DNA from: an uncultured virus (IMG/VR IMGVR_UViG_3300020057_001237)
Lineage: Duplodnaviria > Heunggongvirae > Uroviricota > Caudoviricetes
Strand: one strand, 5' to 3'
Virus record (IMG/VR): IMGVR_UViG_3300020057_001237
Length of the DNA stretch: 64,000 nt
In this document: one piece after another, positions 3,334 through 52,900 of the stretch
Layout of the letters: each line of letters starts with the position of its first letter
How positions within the stretch are numbered: the stretch's first letter is position 1
The notes under the pieces: model-generated
Told to the model about the DNA's origin: nothing
Database searches by the model: none
What the model saw: the letters and a program-made list of their open reading frames with translations, nothing else
Translations under genes and position numbers: made by a program

Positions 3334-6300
3334 ATGGCACTTGAAGCCCTCCTAAAATTTAAAAACATCGACAGCACTGAGAACATCAATGCTCGCCTAG
3401 CGGGTCTTATTCCCAAAGGTGTTCTCAAAGGTGGTGTTGTAACGGCTGAGCCTGCCTCGTTGCAGGTTCGTGTCAAAGGAACTCTTGGAGAGCCTTGGGT
3501 TCTTCTTGCTTTCAGCAGCGGGGGGATGCTTATTCGTGAAAGATCTGAAGAGTACGTTCTTCCGGTCGTAGCGGGTGTCGTCAACGTCGTCGTGCTTAGA
3601 GCCAAATACTTAGAGTCACAAGCACCTCTCACAAGCTTAGAGGTGATGACGTTAGGTGCTTACCAAGCTGATACCGAAAAGGATTCTTTGATTCGTCTTG
3701 CTTCCGTCACACCACCTTTAGGTGCGGTGTCGGTGAATGCAGAAGACATCGACCTTTCGTTTCGAGACAGCATCGAAGGCTTCACTCGTAGAATCCTTCG
3801 AGACGTAGTAACGACGAAGGAAGATCTTCCTGCGGTCAGTGGCTTCCCTGCTACAGCCGAAATCAACTTCGTTGCTAACAACTTTTTAACCAATACAACT
3901 ATCAGCGTGTCGGCAGGTCTTCTAACTGAAGTCTTCTCGATTGTTCCAGCGATCAACTTTGTGGTTGGTAGTCCTTCGATCCCCGGTCTTTCAAGAGTCA
4001 ACCCGAGCCAGAAGTCAATTGTTTCCGCAGTCGAAGCTGCCTTGAGTGGTATCGTTACGGTTACGACGGCGACCCCTCACGGACTTGCCCCTGGAAACCA
4101 AATTAGGATTTCGGGCTCTTCCGCTCCAGGTGCTAACAGTGTTTGGACCGTGGATGCGACGGGTCTAACGGCGAGTTCTTTCCGTTTTGTCAAAGGCGGC
4201 AGTGCAACTCCGTTCACATCTACAGGTGGTAACTTAGTAAACACCGCCGTCATTGCGACGGTGACCGTTAAACTAGCACCGGGCGTAACACACGACCTCG
4301 TAGCTAGCCAACCTATTGTCGTTACTAATGCGACAGATCCTAGCTTCAACGTAACGTCAAGCGTCAGCTCGATTGTGGACGCTCAGACGTTTACATATCA
4401 GATGACAGGCTTCCCGACCGGCGACTCCGGCAACGGCAAAGTCACCAAAGTCGGCTTCTCGCTTCCGCCTAACGGTGTTGAGATTGGCGAAAGTGCAACT
4501 GTCACCGCTGCCAACTTCGAAACAGCTTTCCTTGCGTCAGGTCTTTCGACTCTTATAAAAGCGAACGCAATTGGCTCTTCGATTCAGCTTGAAGTTGTAG
4601 ATGTTGGTATCTTAGGCAACACGTACACAATTTCAAAAGCAGAGCCTGGCGTAGTTTCAGGTTCAGAGCGCATCGTTCTAAGTGGCGCGACGTTTTCAGG
4701 TGGCGCAGACCCCATTGCAGGTCTAAGCTCGGCAGTTGATTTGCGAGCTGGCGACCTCTACATTGTTCTTTTCGGCGACATCGGCACGATGGAGATTTGG
4801 GGTTACGACGGCACTCGCTTCCGTAACTTGACCTCCGCCGCTACGATTACGCTTCTTGACTTCCACCGTAGAAACCTTCTCCCTAATGAGAAGCACCTTA
4901 CGGAAAACGAAAAGTCTGCACTTGTGGGGACTGTGGGAACACCGTCCGCCACGAACCCTTTCGTTACGAAGCAAGACACTTCCATTCTAACGAATAACCT
5001 TGCCGACGCCTTGCAAGGTGCTGACAACGAAACGCCGTCAGGAGCTAACCGCTTCCTGACCGAGGCTCGTGTCCGTGGTGAGCGGGGAGCGATCTCCATC
5101 CCCGGAGGTACCAACCTTTCGATCCCGGCAGCCAACGTCAACGCTGCGACCGACGTAATTACTTACGCTGCTCACGGAATGTCGGACGGCTTCGCCGTTT
5201 CGTTCACGACATCAGGCGTTATTCCTTCGGGCTTGCTCGTGGGAACGACTTACTACGTCGTCAGCTCGACCTTGAACACATTTAAGGTAGCTCTTACCTT
5301 CGGTGGAGCTGCCATCGACATCATCTCGTCGGGATCAGGCACGCACACCCTTGTCGTTCCTTACCAAGATTGGGTCAAGCTTCCAGCAAGTGAGCGTTGG
5401 GTTGTAGGCACAGAGACTGACTCAGCACTTCAATACTTCAACGTCGTCTTCAACTCCACCTTGAAAAACGCTGGTGGACCGGACGAGTATACGCAACAAA
5501 GCTTTACGCCTGTGAAGGTGGACAAGCTCTATATCGACAAGCCCTTTATTACGGGTAACGAACTTAATCCGGCAGATGCTTTGATCGGTGCGGACGGCGG
5601 CGGTGTTTACCCTCGTGCTGAAGCCCCCCTCTTAGGTAACCCGACTGATCTTTATGTAAAGCTCACAGCACAGCCCAACAACGGTGTGGCTACGGTCTTC
5701 TATAGCAGAGCAGCTAAAGAAAAGGTACGAGCAACTACTGCCGACATGCTTATGGGTCCGCAGCGGATTACGCCTGCATCTATTAAAGATGTAGAAAACA
5801 AAGTTGCTGAGCTGCGCTTCAACGCAGGAATCACCGTCAGCGGTACGTCTATCACGTTCCCGTCCAGTCTTTTTGTTTCTAGCAACCTTCAGAACTTTAA
5901 GTTCCGCCGAGCAGTCGGTGGCAAGCTAGCATGGCTCTCGGCAGGCTTCACTGCCAACTTCGCTACAGGCACAGGCACGGCAGGTATCATCGAGAACTTC
6001 TCGACGGTCACTTTCCCGGCAGCCAGCACTTGGTCGAAGTACATCTTGAGCCTTGCGTCCACGGGGAAGATCAATACATATAAATTAGAAGACCATTTAG
6101 AGTTCTCGACTGACCTCGCCTTCGACACGTCGGTCTCTACCCTCGCTACTTCTAACCTCGCTTTCACTAAAGGTGAATGGGTATTCGCAGTCGTAGCGGT
6201 GAAGTCAAATGCCTTAAATACAGGCATCGAAGACCTCGTAGCTACGTCGGTAGAGCTGTACCCATATCAGAGTACAAACTCTCGTGATGCGGGTGCGGAA

Positions 6301-19366: not shown

Positions 19367-20521
19367 CGAAACTCAGCGTAAAACCCCCTGCTTTAGCCGT
19401 GGGGATATAAGCTGTCATAAAACCAGAGGCTAGGTTAATCTATTTCTATGATCCTAACCTATAATTTTAGAATTAAAGATTCCTCTACCCGTAAACTTCT
19501 TAAAAAGATGGCTTCTGATACAAACTTCGTTTGGAACTTCAGCAATAATATAGTCAAAGATCAATGGAAAAAGTCCAGAAAATACACTTCTAAATACGAT
19601 TTAGCCCCTCTCGTAAAAGGAAGTTCCGAATTTCTAACTATCAACTCCCAAACAGTCCAAGCTATCGCCTACGAGTGTGTAACTAGAACTCAGAAGGCAA
19701 AAAAACTAGTTAGGTTTAGAACAGCAGGAAGAAACTTAGGTTGGATACCAATTAACGGTCAGACCTTCAAGCTCCAAGGCTCGACACTAATTTATAATAA
19801 GAAATACTTTAAACTATGGAAATCAAGGGATCTACCTGAAGATGCTAAAATAAAAACAGGGAACTTCTCCCAAAACTCTGAAGGCAAGTGGTTTTGTAAC
19901 ATAACGTTCCAAACCGAAGTATTAGAGGCTAAGAAAGCTCCTAATAAAGAAGTAGCTTTAGACTTAGGGTTAAAAACACTCTACACAACTTCAGACGGCT
20001 TAAAGTCAGAGTTGAGAGTTAATAATACTAATAAATATGCTTTAAAGCTGGCTAAAGCACAGAGAGCTAAGAAGAAGAAACAAGTAACTAAGATCCACAC
20101 CAAAATTAAAAACTCAAGAAAAGACTGGAACCACAAAGAAACCACAAAACTAGCATCGAATTACAACCTTATTTTCGTAGGGGATGTTTCTTCTAAAAGC
20201 CTTAAAAAAACTAAGATGGCGAAGTCCGTTTCGGACGCCGCTTGGTATCAGTTTAAAACTTTCCTGAAGTATAAAGCTATTAAGCACTCAGGAGAGATGC
20301 ATGAAATTAAAGAAAGATTTTCCACGGTAACTTGCTCGGTTTGCCTGTCGAAGACAGGTCCGAGCGGACTAAGAAACTGCGGAGTAAGAGAGTGGATATG
20401 CATTAATTGTAACTCTAGCCATGATAGAGATATAAATTCTGCAAAAAATATTCTCCGTTTCGGGCATGAAACGCTTAACTTAAAAGGAATCCCCCGGCTT
20501 TAGCCGTGGGGAGGATGTCAA
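19367..20521 (+). mobile_element. non-autonomous IS200/IS605-family element (tnpB only)
   Basis: Subterminal hairpins CCCCCTGCTTTAGCCGTGGGG (left) and CCCCCGGCTTTAGCCGTGGGG (right). The right end finishes GGATGTCAA. It is inserted after TTAT with no target duplication, is visibly AT-rich relative to its flanks, and has no tnpA. Confidence 0.9.
19448..20503 (+). CDS. tnpB: RNA-guided endonuclease TnpB
   Basis: N-terminal TYNFRIK..VWN, RuvC-I ALDLG, VGD with a downstream E (EIKERFST), zinc finger CSVC..CINC, and RuvC-III HDRDINSA. Confidence 0.93.
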   Translation: MILTYNFRIKDSSTRKLLKKMASDTNFVWNFSNNIVKDQWKKSRKYTSKYDLAPLVKGSSEFLTINSQTVQAIAYECVTRTQKAKKLVRFRTAGRNLGWIPINGQTFKLQGSTLIYNKKYFKLWKSRDLPEDAKIKTGNFSQNSEGKWFCNITFQTEVLEAKKAPNKEVALDLGLKTLYTTSDGLKSELRVNNTNKYALKLAKAQRAKKKKQVTKIHTKIKNSRKDWNHKETTKLASNYNLIFVGDVSSKSLKKTKMAKSVSDAAWYQFKTFLKYKAIKHSGEMHEIKERFSTVTCSVCLSKTGPSGLRNCGVREWICINCNSSHDRDINSAKNILRFGHETLNLKGIPRL

Positions 20522-28634: not shown

Positions 28635-29438
28635 ATGAAGAATTTTTGGTGCTGGCTCTTAAGCTTTTTCGTGAAGCCTGCTTACAAAAAGTACGGATGG
28701 ATTCCAGACAAACCCGACCACAGAGACTACATTTTCCAAGAGGCTTTAAGTGTAGAGATGTTACCGACGATGGTTGACATGCGTAAGGATTGCCCCGCCG
28801 TCTACGACCAAAGTTCACTCGGCTCCTGTACGGCGAATGCCACCGCTGCCCAATGCGAGATCGAAGCAAAGCAAAACAAGAAGCCGATCTACACGCCGTC
28901 ACGACTTTTCGTTTACTACAACAGTCGTCTGCTTGAAGGTACGACGAGGTATGACAGCGGTGCTTCTATCAGAGACTCTGTGAAGACGATTCTTCAGTAC
29001 GGCTACTGCCGGGAGACTGCGTACCCTTACGTCATTTCGAAGTTCCGCAGTAAGCCTTCTGCTAGCCTCTACGCTGCTGCCGCTGAGCATAAGATCACGA
29101 CTAAGCAGTACGCTAGAGTTTCTCAAACATTAACCTCTCTTAAAAGCTGTCTAGCTTTGGGTAACACCGTAAACTTTGGCTTCACCGTCTACTCAAGCTT
29201 TGAGTCCGACGCCGTAGCAAAGACGGGTATCATGCCTATGCCGAAGAAAAATGAGAGGTCTCTTGGCGGACACGCCGTCCTCATGGTCGGCTACGACGAC
29301 GCCAAGCAGTGCTTCATCGTCAGGAACTCGTGGAGTGCCCGCTGGGGTGACAAAGGCTACTTCTACATGCCTTACGCCTTCGCCGTGAACTCCTCATATG
29401 CTAGCGACTTTTGGACCATAACCAACGTCAACTCTTAA
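28635..29438 (+). CDS. papain-family (C1) cysteine peptidase
   Basis: DQSSLGSC, GGHAV and RNSW..WGDKGY motifs, and a YGW.PD.PD.RD N-terminus. Confidence 0.92.
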   Translation: MKNFWCWLLSFFVKPAYKKYGWIPDKPDHRDYIFQEALSVEMLPTMVDMRKDCPAVYDQSSLGSCTANATAAQCEIEAKQNKKPIYTPSRLFVYYNSRLLEGTTRYDSGASIRDSVKTILQYGYCRETAYPYVISKFRSKPSASLYAAAAEHKITTKQYARVSQTLTSLKSCLALGNTVNFGFTVYSSFESDAVAKTGIMPMPKKNERSLGGHAVLMVGYDDAKQCFIVRNSWSARWGDKGYFYMPYAFAVNSSYASDFWTITNVNS

Positions 29439-29449
29439 TATACTTGACC

Positions 29450-29505
29450 GAGCCTCGCCGACAGTTGTATGAGAAATCATACTTACCACTCAGCGGGGCT
29501 CTTTT
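29450..29505 (+). terminator. hairpin / probable terminator
   Basis: GAGCCTCGC...GCGGGGCTC-TTTT, with an inner GTATGA-GAAA-TCATAC hairpin. Confidence 0.5.
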
Positions 29506-29507
29506 AT

Positions 29508-29575
29508 CAAAACCCAGCGTAAAACCCCCTGCTTTAGCCGTGGGGATATAAGCTGGCATTAAAACTAGTGCTAAT
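29508..29575 (+). mobile_element. orphan IS200/IS605 left end
   Basis: 41 bp (29515-29555) are identical to 19374-19414 and also follow a TTAT. No tnpB or right end follows. Confidence 0.8.
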
Positions 29576-29586
29576 ATATATCATAT

Positions 29587-30549
29587 TTACTCACAGTAAG
29601 GTTGCGTTGGATCAAGCGAACAGATGACATCGCAGATAGATTGGTCGCCAAGCGGACACTCTGCGGGCTCTGTATCGCCGCTAGAGACGGCAGCAAACCA
29701 ACACTTAGGACGGGCTCCGTCGCCTTCAGCGCAGCTATGTTCGTAAGCTTCAGCTTGAGCTTCGACCGAATTGTGGTTGGAAAAGCTTTTGCCGGGGATC
29801 AACTCGTAGTCCCACTTGCTGTTGCCACAGTAGGCAGAAGCGGCGTAGGTGTCGAAACGACATTGAGCTGCGGGGTGAGCATGGTTTGTTCTACGAACAA
29901 CTTTCGGATCTGGAGTTTCGTAGCCAACTTCTGTTCCGCCGAGTTCGCCTAAGAGGTCGGCAAGCGACTTACCGGCTACAACTGCTCTGTAACAAAAGTC
30001 ACGGTCTTCCATGGAGTCATGGTTGGCGTCACATTTGTCTTTCAATGGTTGGGGAAGATCGGCATTTGCTTTCAAAGAAAGCTTGTTGCTTTCTGCGAAG
30101 ACTTTCCAAGCACAAGCTCCCGTAGCGTGCATATCAGACTGACCTTCGTCCGCTGCCCAATCTTGTACGAATGGATAGCCGCCGACGTGGTGACCGATTT
30201 CGTGGCAAAGAACCATAGCGAAACCATCTTCGGTTACTTCCGCACGACGAGCAAGACCGCCGTACATGTTTACAACCCAGCTCGTAGCTGTCGGTTGTTC
30301 TGCGGACGCATTCACGGTTTCGTCAGACCACAGACGATTAACAGTTAATACCGCACCGAAATGCTCAAAAATTGGTTTGTAAATTTGTTCGGCTCTGTCG
30401 ATGACTTTATTAAATTGCTCCTCTGTTATACCAGAACCCACAGCACTCTTATTGAGGTGGAGACTATTCGGCGGCATAAAGGTTTTTGTGGTAGATCCGA
30501 AGACTGTGGTGGGCAAGAGGAACAAAGCGGCAAGACACAACTTTCTCAT
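29587..30549 (-). CDS. secreted zinc metallopeptidase (HExxH, M48-like)
   Basis: Signal peptide MRKLCLAALFLLPTTVFG, VNASA, LCHEIGHH, EGQSD and HP..CR. Cys-rich, with AAAGGA upstream. Confidence 0.82.
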   Translation of the reverse strand: MRKLCLAALFLLPTTVFGSTTKTFMPPNSLHLNKSAVGSGITEEQFNKVIDRAEQIYKPIFEHFGAVLTVNRLWSDETVNASAEQPTATSWVVNMYGGLARRAEVTEDGFAMVLCHEIGHHVGGYPFVQDWAADEGQSDMHATGACAWKVFAESNKLSLKANADLPQPLKDKCDANHDSMEDRDFCYRAVVAGKSLADLLGELGGTEVGYETPDPKVVRRTNHAHPAAQCRFDTYAASAYCGNSKWDYELIPGKSFSNHNSVEAQAEAYEHSCAEGDGARPKCWFAAVSSGDTEPAECPLGDQSICDVICSLDPTQPYCE

Positions 30550-30672
30550 AAAAGGTCCTTTCCTAATATTTTTCCTAAACCGATCAACACGCACTACCCC
30601 AGAGAAACTGGCGGTATACAAGGATCTAATCTAGGAGAGGACAGGTTCTTTTTGAGAAAGTTACGACAGAAA

Positions 30673-30746
30673 TGGCTGGGGATCAGGGACTCGAACCCCG
30701 ATTAGTCACATCAGAAATGACAGTCCTACCATTAGACGAATCCCCA
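30673..30746 (-). tRNA. trnQ: tRNA-Gln(CTG)
   Basis: Cloverleaf with anticodon loop TTCTGAT, TTCGA T-loop and encoded CCA. Confidence 0.92.
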
Positions 30747-30751
30747 ATTAC

Positions 30752-30973
30752 TTAGATGTCCGACGCTTTCCTGTGCTTAAGATATTGACGCTCACGAGCA
30801 AGAGCAATTTTTTCAGGCATACGGGTTTCACCTACAAACGTAATCGTCCACCACTGCTTGTCGTCTACGTCTTTAAACGTAACTTTGTTGCCGAGCTTCA
30901 AAGCACCTTCGTCGTTGAGCCAAGCAATAGTCGTAGCGTTGTCCGATTTCAATGCACACTGTCTGTAGAACAT
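30752..30973 (-). CDS. hypothetical protein within the tRNA array
   Basis: ATG ORF with a purine-rich RBS, co-oriented with the tRNAs. Confidence 0.65.
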   Translation of the reverse strand: MFYRQCALKSDNATTIAWLNDEGALKLGNKVTFKDVDDKQWWTITFVGETRMPEKIALARERQYLKHRKASDI

Positions 30974-30985
30974 ACCCGTACCCTT

Positions 30986-31198
30986 TTACCTTATGTAGAT
31001 GCCTACTTTTCTGACTTTGAATGGAGAAACAGGTTTCGCCTGCTCCACTCCCTTAATCGTTTTTCGATCTCCGTCGAGAAGGATCTCTTCTCCTACGGCG
31101 ATTTTCTGTCCTTGTTCTAGGTCTATTACGTAAACCGTGCCTCTGCCTTTGATGTCGAACTGATCGACTGCAAAAAATTCTTTCATAACTTTACTCAT
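30986..31198 (-). CDS. small beta-barrel-like protein (N-terminus reminiscent of EF-Tu domain II)
   Basis: FFAVDQFDIKGRGTV...GQKIAVGEEI..IKGVE resembles translation-factor domain II (F.I.GRGTV). Confidence 0.55.
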   Translation of the reverse strand: MSKVMKEFFAVDQFDIKGRGTVYVIDLEQGQKIAVGEEILLDGDRKTIKGVEQAKPVSPFKVRKVGIYIR

Positions 31199-31199
31199 T

Positions 31200-31271
31200 A
31201 AGTCCGCAGGACTTGAACCTGCGACACTTTTCTATCAAACAAAACTGGTGCAGCGTTTTACTACACTACTT
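31200..31271 (-). other. degenerate tRNA-like element
   Basis: Perfect T arm GCAGG-TTCAAGT-CCTGC and a D-like stem, but weak acceptor and anticodon stems and no CCA. Confidence 0.35.
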
Positions 31272-31301
31272 TGATGCACTAAAACAGTGCATTGGATTAA
31301 A

Positions 31302-31375
31302 TGGAGCCGACGACGGGATTCAAACCCGTGAGTTCTGGTTGGAAGCCAGATATGTTATCACTACATCACGTCGGC
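31302..31375 (-). tRNA. trnG: tRNA-Gly(TCC)
   Basis: TCTGG-CTTCCAA-CCAGA anticodon arm, U73 and CCA. Confidence 0.9.
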
Positions 31376-31387
31376 ATGAACTGATGG

Positions 31388-31463
31388 TGGCAGGGGAGGT
31401 GAGAATCGAACTCACTCAATGCTGGAATCAAAATCCAGTGCCGTCCCATTTGGCTACTCCCCG
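31388..31463 (-). tRNA. trnQ: tRNA-Gln(TTG)
   Basis: CTGGA-TTTTGAT-TCCAG anticodon arm, G73 and CCA. Confidence 0.9.
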
Positions 31464-31539
31464 ATAAATAACCATCAGGGAGCTTGTGCCCGCACCTTCT
31501 TATTGAACTAACCTCCGCATACAAACCTCTTGAAAAAAA

Positions 31540-31614
31540 TGGCGACCCCGGCTGGATTCTAACCAGCAATGCAACTTTCGTAGAGTTGAGTGATATACAT
31601 TTCACTACGGGGTC
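31540..31614 (-). tRNA. trnR: tRNA-Arg(ACG)
   Basis: CAACT-CTACGAA-AGTTG anticodon arm and CCA. Confidence 0.9.
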
Positions 31615-31627
31615 ATTTTTGAACGTT

Positions 31628-31702
31628 TGGCGGTCTCGGCAGGAATCTAACCTGCAATGCCTCCTTCGGAGGGAAGCGTGATATACGTTTTACTACGAGA
31701 CC
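31628..31702 (-). tRNA. trnR: tRNA-Arg(CCG)
   Basis: CTTCC-CTCCGAA-GGAGG anticodon arm and CCA. Confidence 0.9.
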
Positions 31703-31714
31703 ATAGATAACTAA

Positions 31715-31867
31715 CTACATAACACCTCGAACCTCTGTCTTTGCTTTCTCTTTACACTTGTCACAGATCGTATGTTGGATCTCTTTGTGGTTCGGGCACC
31801 GACATTGCGCCACGACTTTCTCGCAGCATTTGCAAACCAGTTTCCCGTGCCCTGATAAAGACGACAT
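31715..31867 (-). CDS. 50-aa Cys-rich putative zinc-binding protein (absent from the ORF track)
   Basis: MSSLSGHGKLVCKCCEKVVAQCRCPNHKEIQHTICDKCKEKAKTEVRGVM. AAGGGA lies upstream, and it fills the gap between two tRNAs. Confidence 0.6.
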   Translation of the reverse strand: MSSLSGHGKLVCKCCEKVVAQCRCPNHKEIQHTICDKCKEKAKTEVRGVM

Positions 31868-31888
31868 ACTAAATCCCTTGTTAAAAAA

Positions 31889-31964
31889 TGGAGCAGATGA
31901 TCGGGTTCAAACCGACGACCTTGACGTTGGCAACGTCACGCTCTATCAACTGAGCTACATCTGC
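31889..31964 (-). tRNA. trnG: tRNA-Gly(GCC)
   Basis: TGACG-TTGCCAA-CGTCA anticodon arm, U73 and CCA. Confidence 0.92.
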
Positions 31965-31975
31965 ATTATAGAAAA

Positions 31976-32050
31976 TGGTGGACCCTGAGAGAATCGGACT
32001 CTCGCCTTCGCCGTGCAAGGGCGACGTGCTACCACTATCACTAAGAGCCC
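31976..32050 (-). tRNA. trnA: tRNA-Ala(TGC)
   Basis: TCGCC-CTTGCAC-GGCGA anticodon arm, G3:U70 pair, A73 and CCA. Confidence 0.92.
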
Positions 32051-32074
32051 GTAACAATGAAACCTTCTAAAGTG

Positions 32075-32151
32075 GTGGGGGGAGCGAGGGGTTTCGATCC
32101 CCCTTCTACCGCATCACAAGCGGGTATCTTAGCCACTAGACGACGCTCCCC
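32075..32151 (-). tRNA. trnH: tRNA-His(GTG)
   Basis: CCGC-TTGTGAT-GCGG anticodon arm, G-1 and C73. The 3' end is uncertain by 1 nt in a C-run. Confidence 0.88.
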
Positions 32152-32170
32152 ATACGAATCAACTACCCCT

Positions 32171-32210
32171 AAAACACTGAACCCCACTCGGCTTTCGCTG
32201 GGTGGGGTCA
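32171..32210 (-). terminator. attenuator terminator hairpin upstream of the tRNA array
   Basis: Minus strand TGACCCCACCCAGC-GAAA-GCCGAGTGGGGTTCA-GTGTTTT. Confidence 0.7.
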
Positions 32211-32236
32211 TTCCTTTGTAGTCTTGTCAGAGACCT

Positions 32237-32317
32237 TTAAGGACAAACCCCCACGCTACCGGCTGCACGATGTTGTGCTGCGGCTTGGTGTTGTGCTTGT
32301 CCTTGACCCTTAAACAT
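32237..32317 (-). CDS. putative attenuation leader peptide MFKGQGQAQHQAAAQHRAAGSVGVCP
   Basis: AAAAGGA RBS. Codons 4-20 encode only G/Q/A/H/R, matching the downstream tRNAs. The 3' end is complementary to the 5' arm of the terminator. Confidence 0.75.
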   Translation of the reverse strand: MFKGQGQAQHQAAAQHRAAGSVGVCP

Positions 32318-32432
32318 GACTAGCAATTCCTTTTGAGTTAGAAAGTGAGGGTTCAAGATGAAAGTGCTATTGGACTGTTTCTTAAACAAAGAAGCTTGTA
32401 AGCACTGACTGAGGGAACCATCACTCTTATTA

Positions 32433-32460
32433 ATCTTACACAGAAGTTCCCCTGCGTCAA
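32433..32460 (-). promoter_or_regulatory. sigma70-like promoter for the leader peptide and tRNA array
   Basis: TTGACG-16 nt-TAAGAT, about 115 nt upstream of the leader ATG. Confidence 0.55.
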
Positions 32461-32608
32461 CTTCTTTTGCTGCGGACTACCTTAGACTGGATGAAAACTA
32501 GGGTAAGCCTTGCCTCTCAGCCCCGAAAGTCGTAAAAGACCTGTTCTGCTTTGTTCCTTCCTTAATTAGAGCAGGCTCAAGTCGTTGGACCTGAGCCTGT
32601 TTGATTTA

Positions 32609-32682
32609 TGGTAGGCGTACTCTGAATCGAACAGAGCCTAAAACCTTATAAGAGTCTCGTGCTTCCACTACACCATACGCCC
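32609..32682 (-). tRNA. trnI: tRNA-Ile(TAT)
   Basis: AGACT-CTTATAA-GGTTT anticodon arm, A73 and CCA. It is followed by a CAGGCTCA/TGAGCCTG hairpin. Confidence 0.85.
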
Positions 32683-32927
32683 GTAGAGCGTTAGGGTATT
32701 CGGCTGGTTGCTAGGGTGTAGGTCATAGGTCTATCCTACGGCAATCTGTCCTCTACGGCAACTATTTAACTCACCTCTGGGACTTCCCAGAACAAACGTA
32801 TTGATAGGGGGATTCTCCCCCAGGGCACCAGCTTCCCTTAGGGTTTGAAGCCCAGCCAGCAAGCGCTTAAGTTTCCGTAAGTTTGTCCGATAAGGCATAT
32901 GTATAACTTTTATACAGGAGGTGCATT

Positions 32928-33686
32928 ATGAAAGCAGATCTAGGGATGCCTCAGTTCGATAGGACTTCTCCGCATGATGCGATCGGGTTTGAGGTTTTGA
33001 GCAACTATAGCTTGTTGATGGGTGTTTGCTCGAAGCTGAAGGCTGAAGACAAGAAGACTTTCGACGACCTATTTCATGAGAAGATGGAAGAGGCTGGTGC
33101 TGTGGCAGGCAGGCTCTCACGCCGGTTCTTAGAACGATTTGCGAAGAGGGTCTTCACTGACATTGACCCGAAGACTCAGTCAATCCATTTTTCTCAATTT
33201 ATTTTACCACGGTGTAAGAATCCTGCACGGTGGCAGACGGCTGAGATGGCTGCGAAGAGTTTGACGGTGTGGTGGCGGTCTACGAGTAAGGGAATTCTCT
33301 ACTTCACTAAACCGCTGTCTACGTCTTACGGCTTGATGTTTCCTGCGCACTTCTTTGACCGCTTGACACAGAGGGCTTTCTCGAAGCCTATCGAGCGCCA
33401 TGTAGCGATTGGACGCTTTCTGTGGACCATGATGCAGAGACACGACAACAAGATTGCGCTCAACGACTCAGACGGCGAAACGATGTTGTTCTTCGAGGAG
33501 GGAGCTGGTCTTGGGTACTTGCGGTTCTTGCACAACAGGGACCGCAGTGAGGAGCTTCCGATCATCTACTTGAAGACGTTCATTTCTCCCGACATGCTTT
33601 CAGGAATGCAAAGGCAAGCCGCGCTGACTGCGGGGGGCTTGCCTCCGATTGACTATACCTACCATGCGGACGATTTGTACGAGTAG
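32928..33686 (+). CDS. hypothetical protein
   Basis: AGGAGG RBS, 252 aa, HFFDR motif. Confidence 0.7.
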   Translation: MKADLGMPQFDRTSPHDAIGFEVLSNYSLLMGVCSKLKAEDKKTFDDLFHEKMEEAGAVAGRLSRRFLERFAKRVFTDIDPKTQSIHFSQFILPRCKNPARWQTAEMAAKSLTVWWRSTSKGILYFTKPLSTSYGLMFPAHFFDRLTQRAFSKPIERHVAIGRFLWTMMQRHDNKIALNDSDGETMLFFEEGAGLGYLRFLHNRDRSEELPIIYLKTFISPDMLSGMQRQAALTAGGLPPIDYTYHADDLYE

Positions 33687-34589
33687 TTAGGGCTTGAATT
33701 GGTCCATGACGGCTTGGATCTTCTCGTCGGAGAGTCCTGTTCCGCCTTCAGCTTCAAGCGCTTCGATCACTTCGGCGGACGGGACTTTCACCAAGACCAG
33801 TTCACGGTCGTACACCCCTGCCATGACAGGGGTGTGCCCGCCGACTTCGTTGGTGCGGAACTTAGTGTAGTCGATGAACTCACCTAGTGTGACCTTACCG
33901 TCCTTCTCGCCGCCGTTGTAGCCATCTGCGTAGCCGATGATAGCTTTCCATACGGCGTGACCGAAGGCGCTGCCTGCGCTGCCGTTAGGACCGCTAGGCT
34001 CGTCGTTGTCACGACCAGGACCAGTAGCGCTGTTTTCGTCTGCTGGGCTAGAGCCCATCACGAAAAGGGTGCGTCCCCCAATACCGTAAGACTCCCACTC
34101 GGAGCGGCGTTCGTTGAAGCTATCGACGAGCGCTCCACTGTGGCACGCCATCGTCAAGATGATTTTTTCTTGAGCAGGCATCGCAAGAACCGCATCGCGG
34201 ATGTCGTCGTAGGAGACGCCGACTGCTAGCCCACTTTCAGAGCCGTGCCCAGAGCTGTATTGGAGGTACATGTCGTTCCAGAGCATGGTGTTCGTGAGAC
34301 GATCCCATTCCGCTTTGATCGCGGCGCGGTTGACGTTTTGGTGACCGGTAAGCTGTTTACCAATGTAGTCGCCACCGATGTCTTTCGTGAACACGTCGGC
34401 GGTATGCTTTACGTCGTAGGCAACTTCGTTCTGCATCGACGACGGATCGCCTGCCATAGCAGCACCCCAGCCGAAGTAATACTTCTTGCCGTGGTAGTCG
34501 CCATCGGTAATGCTTTGTGTCGTGCTCGGTTGTTGAGCACCACAGCCTGCCAACGTCAGAACAAAAAAAGACGCAATCAAACGCTTCAT
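33687..34589 (-). CDS. lipoprotein with a caspase-like (clan CD) cysteine peptidase domain
   Basis: Lipobox LAGC, His-Cys dyad motifs YSSGHG and MACHSG, and DG.VTLGE. Confidence 0.78.
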   Translation of the reverse strand: MKRLIASFFVLTLAGCGAQQPSTTQSITDGDYHGKKYYFGWGAAMAGDPSSMQNEVAYDVKHTADVFTKDIGGDYIGKQLTGHQNVNRAAIKAEWDRLTNTMLWNDMYLQYSSGHGSESGLAVGVSYDDIRDAVLAMPAQEKIILTMACHSGALVDSFNERRSEWESYGIGGRTLFVMGSSPADENSATGPGRDNDEPSGPNGSAGSAFGHAVWKAIIGYADGYNGGEKDGKVTLGEFIDYTKFRTNEVGGHTPVMAGVYDRELVLVKVPSAEVIEALEAEGGTGLSDEKIQAVMDQFKP

Positions 34590-49982: not shown

Positions 49983-52900
49983 TTATCACCCAAGATATCA
50001 AATTCCGCTAAGTCAAACCGGAAGATCTTTGACACATCTGCTTTAAAAGCTTCCCAATCAACGATACGTAAATCTGGGTAGCTATGTTGGATCTTTTTAA
50101 AGAGTGTGGCTAGCTTGGTTCTCGTGATATTTAAATACCAATAAGGAGCGCCGTCTTTAAAGTGTAGACGCTGCAAGATCAACATCTCATCACTACCCTC
50201 TCGCACGCTGTCGGTGTAGACGAGGGGATAGCCGTCGATAGTAGCGAAGTGGAACTCGATTAGTAGCGGCTCTGCCTTCTTCGGTTCTTTAGCGCCTGCA
50301 ATCTTCTGCTTGCTTTCACGCTCTAGTTGCTTCAAAGCCCCCTGCTTTGCAGGACGAATACGTCCCGTAGCGATACCCTCTTCGAGGTTTTCTTTGTTGA
50401 TGATCTCAACATTTTTCGCCTCAAGGTCGTGGACGAGCTTAGTCACGCCGCCTTTAGCCGGGACTTCGATATACATGTACTCGCTCTGAAGGCTGAAACC
50501 GAGCCTCCGCACGAAGCCTTGAGGATCAGATACCTTGAAGCAAGTGAGGTAAACCTCTCTGTCTCTCTTCTGAAGGTTGAACTTGAGACGCTTTGGATTC
50601 TCAGGTTCGTTCGGTAGCTTCTTAAGCTCTTCCTCTTTGATGTAGATATTTTTGTTGGAGTTACCTTCAAAGTTCTTCGTTGATGGGACTACGTTTAGTT
50701 TTTCGCCTCTATCGAGGGGCTTATACGAAGCGGGAGCCATCGTGCGGCTGCCGTACAGTTCCTTTTCCACATCTCTTTGCGTAAGTTTGAAGTTTTCGAT
50801 TTTCTTTTGACGGTCGATGTAAGGAACTAAAGCCTTTTCGCCTTGCTCCGACTGCATCGACGCCAAGCTCATAGCAACGTGGGGGATGACATCTTTGTCT
50901 TCGTAGTCGGAGTTTGCTTTCGCAATCATGTGCTCTTGGCTGATGATGCGGGCATTTTTCAAGATCTCAGCACTGTTTTCAACGATGATGTGATGAACGA
51001 AGACTTCACGGGTTTGCTTTAGGCGTGCCGCTCGGTCTTGTCTTTGTCGCATATCGCCGGAAGTCCAAAGCGTATCCGCATGGATGACACAGTTAGCTAC
51101 TTGAAGGTTATGACCAGTACGTAGGCTCTGATCGACGCCGACGATGATCTTAGGGCTCATGCCTTCGATCTTAAAGCGGTTCAGCTCATCGACTTTGCCT
51201 GCGTCGTAGTATACAGCTTGCTCGCGCAGTTGCGGATCAAGGTGTCTGATGATGTTGTGAGCAGACTCAGAAAATTGAGTAAAGATAATAACTTTGCCGT
51301 TGTCTGGCTTACCTAGATGCTCCGAGCAGATCTTATTAATAGCTGCCGACTTAGGTGAAACCGTATCGTCGCCACTGAGAAGAGCGCCGATCTTTTTTAC
51401 TTTAGACGGTGCATTGAGAAAGAGATCTAACGACTTGAACCTCTGAAGGAGGTTTTCGGCGATGACGGGCTCACCCTCGTCAAGAGAAAGTTTGAACGCC
51501 AAAAAAGCTTTAGCGAGCACGGGATCGTTCTCGATGATATTCGCTTCCCCCGCAAGAAAGTCAGCGTAGACTTTGGCTTGCTGTGGGGTAAAGCTAACGA
51601 AGTGGTATCTGCGGTGAACTTTTGGAAGTGCGTAACCCCAAGCTGTTGACCGTATTTGCGGAACACCGAACGACTTCAGGCGCTCCCTGATTTGTTTCGG
51701 CGCTTCCTCTTTGTAGTCGTTAAGATCGCCGTTTTTGGAGTATTTGTTTAAAAACTTTTCCGGCGTGCCGAACATCGACGACTGCACAAACCCGCAAGGA
51801 CCAACGATGTCTAAGAGGTTTCCAGGCATTAATGTTCCTGTGAGACCTCTGACGATGGGTAGCTTCTGGAAAGCTGATATAGCTTGGCTGATGTTGCTTT
51901 CGTTTTTTAAAACGTGGAACTCGTCAGCGTACACGCCGTCCACTTTAAGCTTGTTTAAAAGCTTGTAAGGATTTTCAAAGACTTTGATTTCTTTGTACTT
52001 GTATTGACCTCGACGCATCGCCACTTGTCCGTTAGGAATCGCTTTAGGATTCATAGCAAGCCAAGTGTAAGACGTTATGAAGACTGTGTTGTCAGGTGCC
52101 TTCGCTGCCTCGTCTAAGAAAGCGTCAGTGTCACCTTTCTTCCAAGTGTTAATGGAGTCAGTAGTAATGATCCAAGGGTTGAGGTCGGAGAAGTTTTTGA
52201 CTTCCGTAGCGAACTGCTCAACGAGGGAGCCGAAGACGACCACGAGCGGTTTCTTCATCTTGTTTTTTTCGATTTGCTGCAAAATATCGGCGATCTGCAT
52301 CAGAGTCTTACCAGCGCCGGGATCGGCGTCAACGGGAAGCCTCGGTGCGATGTCGAGACAACCCACTGTGTACCCTTGGTGACCGTAAAACTCCGTACCT
52401 TCTTTGAGACCGGCAATTGTACGGCTAGAGATGTCAGACGGCTTCACTGCCTGCATCTTCTTGAGATAGCTGCTCATCTCGTCTTGTATCTCGGTGCGCT
52501 TCTCTTTTAAATGAGGAGCAAGCAGAGGCAATACGTTGTCGAAGTCAAAGCGGTCGTAGACCGGAAGCTTGTGGAAGGCTGCTCGGTGGGACTTCGTGCG
52601 TTCATAGTCTACGTCACTGTCGATGATGCCACGCTGCTCGGCGTAGCCTAAGATTTCTGCCTTATCGAGGAAGTTAAGGGGACGGTTACCTGTGAGGTTG
52701 AGCGCCTGCCATTGACCTTTCTCGTTGATGAAATAATAGACATCATCTTCTTGGTGGTAAAATTCACCTGCATGTCCCTTTAAGAGGTGACTTGATTCGT
52801 CAAGTGCTTTCTTATCTTCTGGAAGGTTCGACTCTGAGTATTTCTCGAAAAGACTTTTTTGTTGGTCGGCGAGCTTCTTGACCTGCTCCGACATCGGCGA

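Follow-up and report, generated by a model that had tools for sequence, protein, structure and literature searches.

A large uncultured myovirus is the source of the 64-kilobase stretch of DNA analyzed here (the window), which carries on its minus strand a 26-codon open reading frame (ORF) ahead of eight transfer RNA (tRNA) genes, with a long run of codons restricted to the amino acids that those tRNAs carry. The element is probably (at roughly 75%) a ribosome-mediated leader-peptide transcription attenuator that gates the eight-tRNA array by the speed at which the array's own codons are decoded. From sequence comparison and folding models, we infer that the ORF is translated, that transcription can terminate at a hairpin behind it, and that readthrough depends on stalling of the ribosome. 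Codon-matched leaders were found in the clade of the window, in jumbo phages of 358 and 424 kilobases, and in the cultured Caulobacter phage phiCbK; they recur in at least four related phages in addition to phiCbK.

In most discussions, phage tRNAs either patch codon usage constitutively or replace tRNAs that host defences have cleaved, and to our knowledge the control that phages exert over their own tRNA genes is essentially unknown. An earlier note on this DNA, made from its letters alone, had proposed the attenuator, and the proposal has since gained support from the co-variation of leaders and arrays in relatives and from an antiterminator predicted in silico.

The leader reading frame and its match to the array

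Nine tRNA genes on the minus strand of the window are called in agreement by ARAGORN and Rfam. Eight of them form the presumed regulated unit, and the ninth, tRNA-Ile, is separated from tRNA-His by a gap of 458 nucleotides (nt). The main features of the locus are as follows.

32609-32682, minus strand: tRNA-Ile(tat), called by ARAGORN and Rfam, not part of the presumed gated unit and lying upstream of its promoter-like site
32433-32460, minus strand: promoter-like TTGACG-16-TAAGAT, 9 of 12 matches, ~115 nt upstream of the leader ATG
32342-32427, minus strand: long imperfect hairpin in the presumed 5' untranslated region (UTR), nt 6-91 in the fold of 32432-32160 (z = -3.0)
32328-32331, minus strand: Shine-Dalgarno-like AGGA, 10 nt before the ATG
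32237-32317, minus strand: leader ORF of 26 codons plus TAA, MFKGQGQAQHQAAAQHRAAGSVGVCP, with its ATG at 32317
32258-32308, minus strand: sensor run (codons 4-20), in which every codon specifies Gly, Gln, Ala, His or Arg (see the run statistics below)
32169-32210, minus strand: putative terminator hairpin UGACCCCAC / AGUGGGGUU with a GAAA-capped inner stem and the tail CAGUGUUUUAG, from sequence and fold
32076-32150, minus strand: tRNA-His(gtg), first of the array, called by ARAGORN and Rfam
30673-30746, minus strand: tRNA-Gln(ctg), last of the array, called by ARAGORN and Rfam
30673-32150, minus strand: presumed regulated unit of His(gtg), Ala(tgc), Gly(gcc), Arg(ccg), Arg(acg), Gln(ttg), Gly(tcc) and Gln(ctg), called by ARAGORN and Rfam

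The earlier note had read this locus as a 26-codon ORF (32317-32237) whose codons 4-20 match the amino-acid set of the array, preceded by an AAAAGGA ribosome-binding site and followed by tRNAs in the order His to Gln(ctg), with a promoter at 32460-32433, tRNA-Ile upstream of that promoter, and a peptide free of Ile. These sequence statements all hold: ARAGORN, Rfam and the sequence agree on the tRNAs, AGGA is present 10 nt upstream of the start codon, and no Ile codon occurs in the leader. The string TTGACG-16-TAAGAT is likewise present, the match itself being weak (9/12, no better than expected by chance).

The 17-codon run is composed of three Gly, five Gln, six Ala, two His and one Arg codons, and these are the five amino acids of the array downstream. 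It is the longest run of such codons in the six frames of the window, where the next longest has 9 codons, eight runs have at least 8 codons, and 2.3e-5 runs of at least 17 codons would be expected. When the 51 nt were shuffled 200,000 times with dinucleotides preserved, no shuffle kept all 17 codons within the set, and the probability of the run is ~1.4e-7 even under the local CA-rich composition. By standard wobble rules, the array anticodons can read 16 of the 25 sense codons that follow the ATG. The phage's own genes favor CAA, GGT, CGT and CAC, all of which are used in the leader, although this is weak context.

It is very unlikely that the match to the array is a coincidence, the ORF being either a chance low-complexity stretch of CA-rich spacer or an unremarkable small gene followed by a terminator of its own. 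The CA-rich local sequence and the very large number of windows scanned would favor such a reading, whereas the shuffles just described, the persistence of the signal when the window is left out, the recurrence of the pattern in other phages, and its codon-for-anticodon resolution all argue against it.

In nine leaders, one of them weak, an exact Watson-Crick codon is found in the array's own leader for a mean of 0.77 of the array anticodons, compared with 0.34 in the other leaders, and none of 100,000 permutations reached this difference. These nine leaders were picked by matching, and therefore a screen of 468 ORFs serves as the unbiased test. The screen set comprised ATG-initiated ORFs of 10-60 codons, the longest for each stop codon, lying at most 2500 nt upstream of same-strand tRNAs in the window, in the loci L001, L047, L007 and L035, and in the tRNA regions of the large genomes G002 and G003. 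Each ORF was scored in bits by its log-odds maximal segment of codons matching the amino acids of the next 12 tRNAs at most, and the null model permuted the tRNA labels 1000 times, with the following results.

At least 10 bits: 10 ORFs observed, permutation mean 3.2
At least 12 bits: 7 ORFs observed, permutation mean 1.0
At least 15 bits: 4 ORFs observed, permutation mean 0.3
At least 20 bits: 3 ORFs observed, permutation mean 0.03

At 10 bits and above, not one of the 1000 permutations attained the counts seen in the data, and 90 did so at 8 bits. The window ORF ranks first of the 468 at 34.6 bits. When the window is left out, 6 ORFs remain at 12 bits against 0.9 expected (1/1000 permutations). 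Permutation within G003 alone gives 3 ORFs against 0.45 (9/1000), and within G002 alone 2 against 0.23 (21/1000); because this excess persists within genomes, base composition does not explain the signal. A statistic used earlier, the longest perfect run, was weak (3 ORFs with runs of at least 8 codons against 0.58 expected, and 18.8% of permutations with a maximum run of at least 9) and was replaced by the log-odds segment score.

Codon-matched leaders in other phages

Relatives were recovered through a 754-amino-acid vWFA-type tail protein of the window (phrog_2426 match at 2e-138; ~27% identity to proteins of Vi1-like phages). Used alone and as a two-sequence alignment, it yielded 1 + 43 + 4 loci at 37-59% identity. 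Eight of the 46 loci scanned contain tRNAs. Two differences in 22,229 bases separate the loci L001 and L034, and L011 is the same as L049. By DNA similarity, the 50,697 phage records searched gave short tRNA matches only (11 records, each covering at most 6% of the query), and no relatives were found in IMG/VR through the neighboring 252-amino-acid protein or through the exact 28-nt terminator pattern. The window DNA is present in microbial-mat metagenome runs, a search of sequencing runs gave no RNA run that contains it, and the contigs of four DNA runs (30600-32700) have no variant letters in the leader.

The earlier note had pointed to co-variation between leader codons and anticodons in related phages, and this proved to be strongly positive across the L001, L047, G003 and G002 loci. 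The leaders have no alignable sequence between phages, yet each matches its own array. In L001 and L034 the leader MKLTIRQPQPQPGYNTRGTCV (QPQPQP) stands before Pro(tgg), Pro(cgg), Gln(ttg) and Gln(ctg); a 10/12 promoter match in L001 ends 7 nt before the ATG, and a textbook terminator follows the ORF. Behind the L047 leader MNYFVNQQIRPIQPQWIDPRIPSIGGAC, which includes QQIRPIQPQWIDPRIPSI, come a hairpin, a U-rich tail and then Pro, tRNA(cat), Gln, Gln, Arg, Arg and Trp.

The two large genomes carry further examples. G003, a record of 358 kilobases with 51 tRNAs, has a Leu leader MKTGIDIVAKTEIVSTDLSLSLLLL, ending in LSLSLLLL, in which CTA, CTT, CTG, TTA, CTC and TTG occur once each, and this leader sits before six Leu tRNAs with the matching anticodons taa, aag, gag, tag, cag and caa. 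Its FYNKWS leader, ending in SSSPKNKSSYWFSKS, precedes Phe, Tyr, Asn, Lys, Tyr, Phe, Lys, Trp, Ser and Ser, and its PHQ leader, ending in SPVHPPHQQ, precedes Pro, Pro, Arg, Pro, Gln, His and Gln. G002 is a record of 424 kilobases with 36 tRNAs. Its first leader (G002a), MKIFFQQPQPQQPRNITWRGLLLK, includes QQPQPQQPR and has a Watson-Crick codon for 6/6 anticodons of the Pro/Gln/Arg array behind it. Another (G002c), MKTIRIANRTRENRIAINGNDETGG, ends in IANRTRENRIAINGNDETGG and is followed by Thr, Glu, Ile, tRNA(cat), Asp, Asn, Glu, Gly, Arg, Gly and Arg.

Independent consensus scans place a promoter and a terminator around those of L001, G002a and G002c, and the distance from the hairpin to the first tRNA is at most 25 nt in the window, L047 and G002a. 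The relatives have their ATG either 6-7 nt behind a -10 box or after a strong Shine-Dalgarno sequence.

The same layout of leader, terminator and tRNAs is present in the cultured phage phiCbK, where the depositors' annotation puts a rho-independent terminator immediately ahead of each of three tRNA blocks. One leader, MSKTYRQFVRQIQVVRNIRAGRSRMADEGFRD, begins with MSKTYRQFVRQIQVVRNI, has its ATG 7 nt after TTGACA-17-TAGGGT, and lies upstream of Phe, Val, Ile, Ile, Val, Gln and Gln; at 15.7 bits it is the top of 11 ORFs. The gene gp083, rich in Ser, Leu, Lys, Ala and Pro, scores 10.5 bits and lies upstream of Pro, Pro, Lys, Lys, Leu, Leu, Leu, Ala, Ser and Ser. The phiCbK leaders share with the window element a promoter or promoter-like site, a short ORF written in the amino acids of the array, and a terminator or candidate terminator directly before the tRNAs, whereas no leader sequence can be aligned between them and the phage lineages and hosts differ. 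In a term search of the phiCbK genome paper (PMC3556154), the terms 'attenuat' and 'leader' occur 0 times.

Three other ORFs were considered as leaders and set aside. The G002 candidate MRKGFFYFFKKKCYKQTSKFYA (G002b; 9.7 bits) has no terminator and probably lies inside a coding region, a G003 ORF beginning MWLQSSSQFSS (11.7 bits) also has no terminator, and an ORF before tRNA-Ile in the window (55 amino acids; 32731-32898; 9.5 bits) has no ATA codon in its best-scoring C-terminal stretch.

Several side observations concern the leaders and tRNAs of these phages. On the G003 contig, tRNAs at 92-150 kilobases (L087-L090) are largely arranged in isotype-sorted blocks (six Leu, four Ser and three Thr, with pairs of Gly, Asp, Ala, Ile and Val). 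The N-termini of two G003 leaders (MKTGIDIVAKTEI and MDHTITIVATEI) look homologous, and the ribosome-binding site GGTGAGGTGAGAGA is common to two G003 leaders. CAT-anticodon tRNAs stand behind leaders with ATA codons in L047 (positions 1653-1727; four ATA codons) and in G002c (L084; one ATA codon), which suggests that they may be lysidine-type tRNA-Ile2 reading ATA rather than tRNA-Met. On the G002 contig (1278-1350; L086), a CTA-anticodon tRNA labeled Pyl by ARAGORN is a candidate TAG suppressor and hints at possible stop-codon recoding in the 424-kilobase phage. Between Gln(ttg) and Gln(ctg) of L001 is a tRNA-like gene (4363-4642, plus strand) with ~184 nt interrupting its anticodon loop; ARAGORN reads it as Arg(cct) at low threshold, and it matches no group I intron or other Rfam family, and Rfam finds no family besides tRNA in L001. 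In phiCbK, the interval from the leader's terminator to tRNA-Phe holds an unannotated tRNA-Tyr(gta)-like sequence (L093 4742-4826; phiCbK ~51541-51625), which ARAGORN reports solely at a low threshold, and the leader has one Tyr codon.

The predicted switch and its alternatives

The proposed attenuator would work through alternative pairings of RNA segments. Transcription would start upstream of the 26-codon ORF, whose codons 4-20 are those decoded by the downstream tRNAs. With fast decoding, the ribosome would arrive at the last codons or the stop codon and cover segment 2; the terminator (segments 3:4) would then form ~20 nt before tRNA-His, and the array would be silent. If the cognate tRNAs are scarce, decoding would be slow and the ribosome would stall inside the run, leaving segment 2 free to pair with segment 3. 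This pairing would block the terminator and let RNA polymerase enter the array. Because the circuit would make the very molecule that it senses, it would adjust the supply of tRNA to the demand of decoding by a direct negative feedback. Candidate triggers are the codon demand of late infection, a mismatch with the host tRNA pool, and cleavage of host tRNAs; a link to host anticodon nucleases is speculation. Amino-acid starvation is an unlikely signal, since extra tRNA would not relieve it. The segments are located as follows.

32293-32304, minus strand: segment 1, paired with segment 2 in the ribosome-free RNA (minimum-free-energy folds)
32239-32251, minus strand: segment 2, the 3' end of the ORF (GGGGUU..UCCUU), partner of segment 1 or segment 3
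32204-32216, minus strand: segment 3 (AAGGA..GACCCC), overlapping the 5' arm of the terminator and forming the antiterminator with segment 2 (fold with stalls at codons 4-10)

In the ribosome-free leader RNA of the window, the two halves of the ORF pair with each other, segment 1 at the start of the run being bound to segment 2, and the terminator is formed. To represent a ribosome, only the RNA 3' of it was folded; a model that masked only the footprint was replaced, as it let segments 1 and 2 re-pair around a ribosome at codons 13-19, which is sterically unrealistic. The earlier note had suggested that the end of the ORF pairs with the 5' arm of the terminator as an antiterminator, and folding with and without a ribosome bears this out in silico: the predicted antiterminator is mutually exclusive with the terminator, exposed by a stalled ribosome, and masked by one at the stop codon. 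The terminator is missing from the minimum-free-energy fold with the A site at codons 3-18 and complete at codons 22-27. In a snapshot of folding during transcription, with the 3' arm still unmade, segment 2 holds 6-7 of the 9 nt of the 5' arm for stalls at codons 2-18 and just 0-3 of 9 from codon 19 on. The predicted switch falls where the matched run ends, at codon 20. For the other loci, the same snapshot gave the following pre-pairing of the 5' arm.

L001: 9 of 11 nt pre-paired up to codon 11; sensor end at codon 12
L047: 12 of 14 nt pre-paired up to codon 19
G002a: 11 of 11 nt pre-paired up to codon 13; sensor end at codon 14
G002c: 10 of 12 nt pre-paired at codons 6-18
phiCbK: 15 of 16 nt pre-paired up to codon 13

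A switch boundary at the end of the sensor is thus common to L001, L047, G002a and phiCbK, and G002c has the same boundary in the pre-pairing snapshot. The antiterminator partner in five loci corresponds precisely to what a ribosome at the stop codon would cover. In the ribosome-free snapshot the antiterminator is favored in L001, L047 and G002a, unlike in the window and in trp.

The putative terminator of the window is not of the textbook kind. A GC-rich hairpin (32210-32180; -16.7 kcal/mol alone) and a U-rich tail (CAGUGUUUU at 32179-32171) are present, and tRNA-His begins 20 nt past the tail. However, the stem is interrupted by an A-C mismatch on the minus strand, the U tract is broken, and the consensus scan calls the hairpin terminator-like on the plus strand only and not on the minus strand. 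The promoter-like site at 32433-32460 is the sole one on the minus strand between tRNA-Ile and the array, and the scan of the window found none between the hairpin and tRNA-His. Since the hairpin abuts tRNA-His and no promoter-like site intervenes, the array in the window must be transcribed by readthrough. Most of the stretch from the promoter-like site to the leader is filled by the 5'-UTR hairpin, and the relatives are without such a UTR.

The imperfections of the terminator are among a number of points that weigh against the attenuator. The promoter match is no better than expected by chance (2 sites in 5 kilobases against 4.1 in shuffles), and the promoter-like site is both weak and 115 nt upstream of a leader whose counterparts in relatives start 6-7 nt after the -10 box. 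The Shine-Dalgarno spacing in the window is 10 nt. The leader has no codon cognate to two of the eight tRNAs, Arg(ccg) and Gln(ctg), and both of its GCC codons need U34 wobble. Leaders were not found at L007 (3 tRNA groups), L035 (2 groups), L010 and L006, and of the 27 groups into which gaps divide the G003 tRNAs, 24 have none within 420 nt. Permutation within single genomes gives just moderate significance. As for the switch, the G003 leaders have their sensor at the extreme C-terminus of the ORF and are without clear U-tract terminators, the L001 terminator persists at equilibrium in nearly every modeled ribosome state, and the competing hairpin of G002c removes merely ~2 base pairs of the terminator. 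Antitermination in L001 would therefore rest on the order of folding, and the caveats for L001, G002c and G003 mean that switch details must differ between members.

Some of these points would equally suit a codon-matched leader that is a real sensor but acts through Rho access, through RNase processing or precursor stability, or through translation of the small ORFs embedded in the array, an option that is improbable but deserves some weight. The non-canonical terminator of the window, the lack of clean U-tract terminators in G003, and the slight effect of the alternative hairpin in G002c are consistent with it, as are the small protein genes inside the arrays and the hairpin after the PHQ leader of G003, which sequesters the GGAGGA of the next ORF. 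What favors intrinsic termination instead is that consensus hairpins with U-run terminators come right after the leaders of L001, G002a, G002c and phiCbK, together with the location of the antiterminator partner at the stop-codon footprint in five loci.

The folding results also bear on whether the region might be a structured non-coding RNA or a signal for tRNA-precursor processing in which the ORF is incidental. This is very unlikely. It is true that the region folds better than shuffles (z = -3.0) and that the halves of the ORF pair, but no non-tRNA Rfam family reaches the gathering score in 29000-34500, and structure alone cannot explain the in-frame codon match to the array or the matches of unalignable leaders elsewhere.

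Known attenuators, wider meaning and neighboring features

Leader-peptide attenuators control amino-acid operons of enterobacteria, with trpL, hisL, leuL and pheL as examples and thrL and ilvL as multivalent forms. The window element shares with all of these a short ORF, a run of regulatory codons and, in the predicted folds, mutually exclusive 1:2, 2:3 and 3:4 pairings; as in these leaders, a ribosome at the stop codon is predicted to mask segment 2 and ribosome-free RNA to terminate. Like thrL and ilvL, it would sense several amino acids at once. The regulated genes differ, in that they are tRNAs, the sensed molecules, rather than biosynthetic enzymes, and the window element is phage-borne and covers five amino acids in 17 consecutive codons. 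Several relatives depart from trp in that their mRNA looks leaderless and the ribosome-free state favors the antiterminator.

The pheM leader of pheST, the closest precedent within the translation apparatus, is an attenuator of phenylalanyl-tRNA synthetase, and like it the window element would tune a component of the decoding apparatus through the reading of its own codons; pheM controls the synthetase for one amino acid in a cellular genome, whereas here a tRNA array is controlled. T-box RNAs (Rfam RF00230) bind uncharged tRNA directly, with no ORF or ribosome, and have in common with the proposed window element a terminator/antiterminator switch that reports on a specific tRNA. The element is not a T-box riboswitch: at E of 1 or less, 29000-34500 contains no T-box or other non-tRNA Rfam match except two rows at chance level (E 0.1 and 0.49), which lie outside the leader.

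In a full-text search, whose reach excluded subscription-only papers, no published leader peptide or attenuator controlling tRNA genes was found for phage or cell. Control in the style of the trp operon thus appears to be undescribed for tRNA genes, and the element is best read as following classical leader-peptide attenuator logic, above all that of the multivalent thr and ilv leaders. If this is correct, classical trp/his logic would for the first time be seen to regulate the very molecule that is sensed, and decoding demand and tRNA supply would be coupled by direct feedback. It would also account for the sorting of tRNA arrays into isotype blocks in big phages. Leader codons could serve as a sequence-only predictor of which tRNAs are co-regulated and of how ambiguous tRNAs decode, such as the CAT tRNA of L047 and ATA. 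Furthermore, such leaders might provide compact, programmable codon-sensing parts for synthetic biology.

More tentative, and rather to be doubted than believed at present, is the broader idea that large phages split their tRNA genes into regulons, each with a codon-matched leader, that together form a multiplexed, codon-resolved sensor of how well the infected cell can decode. Such a system would be host-adaptive, an inducible counter-defence, widespread, and repeatedly re-tuned. If so, a phage would switch on solely those tRNA sets that its host lacks or that have been lost to shut-off or to an anticodon nuclease.

The remaining observations concern the surroundings of the array. The gene content of the window includes a tail-sheath-like protein, several tail-fibre-like proteins and an SNF2-type helicase in addition to the vWFA-type protein. 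Three small ORFs lie among the tRNAs of the array.

31715-31867, minus strand: small ORF, 50 amino acids, Cys-rich and zinc-ribbon-like, with no family match
30986-31198, minus strand: small ORF
30752-30973, minus strand: small ORF

Similar small ORFs with CxxC motifs, also with no family match, occur between tRNAs of the 358-kilobase relative G003 (L088/L089). At 31197-31301 on the minus strand, a tRNA-like stretch has a good T arm (CGCAGGTTCAAGTCCTGCG) and a D arm resembling both tRNA-Arg genes. It is not called by ARAGORN or Rfam at default settings, and an intron-allowing ARAGORN run at low threshold gives Thr(agt) with a 23-nt insert, intron-bearing calls at that threshold being too weak to use. 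The stretch may be a decayed or unusual tRNA. Within the phage structural region, a TnpB-like gene (19448-20503, plus strand) has OrfB_IS605 and Cas12f1-like TNB domains. The array is flanked by two kinds of unusual phage cargo: a papain-family cysteine protease with an N-terminal hydrophobic segment (28635-29438, plus strand) and a 344-amino-acid protein with a signal-like N-terminus and a HEIGH motif (29587-30621, minus strand).

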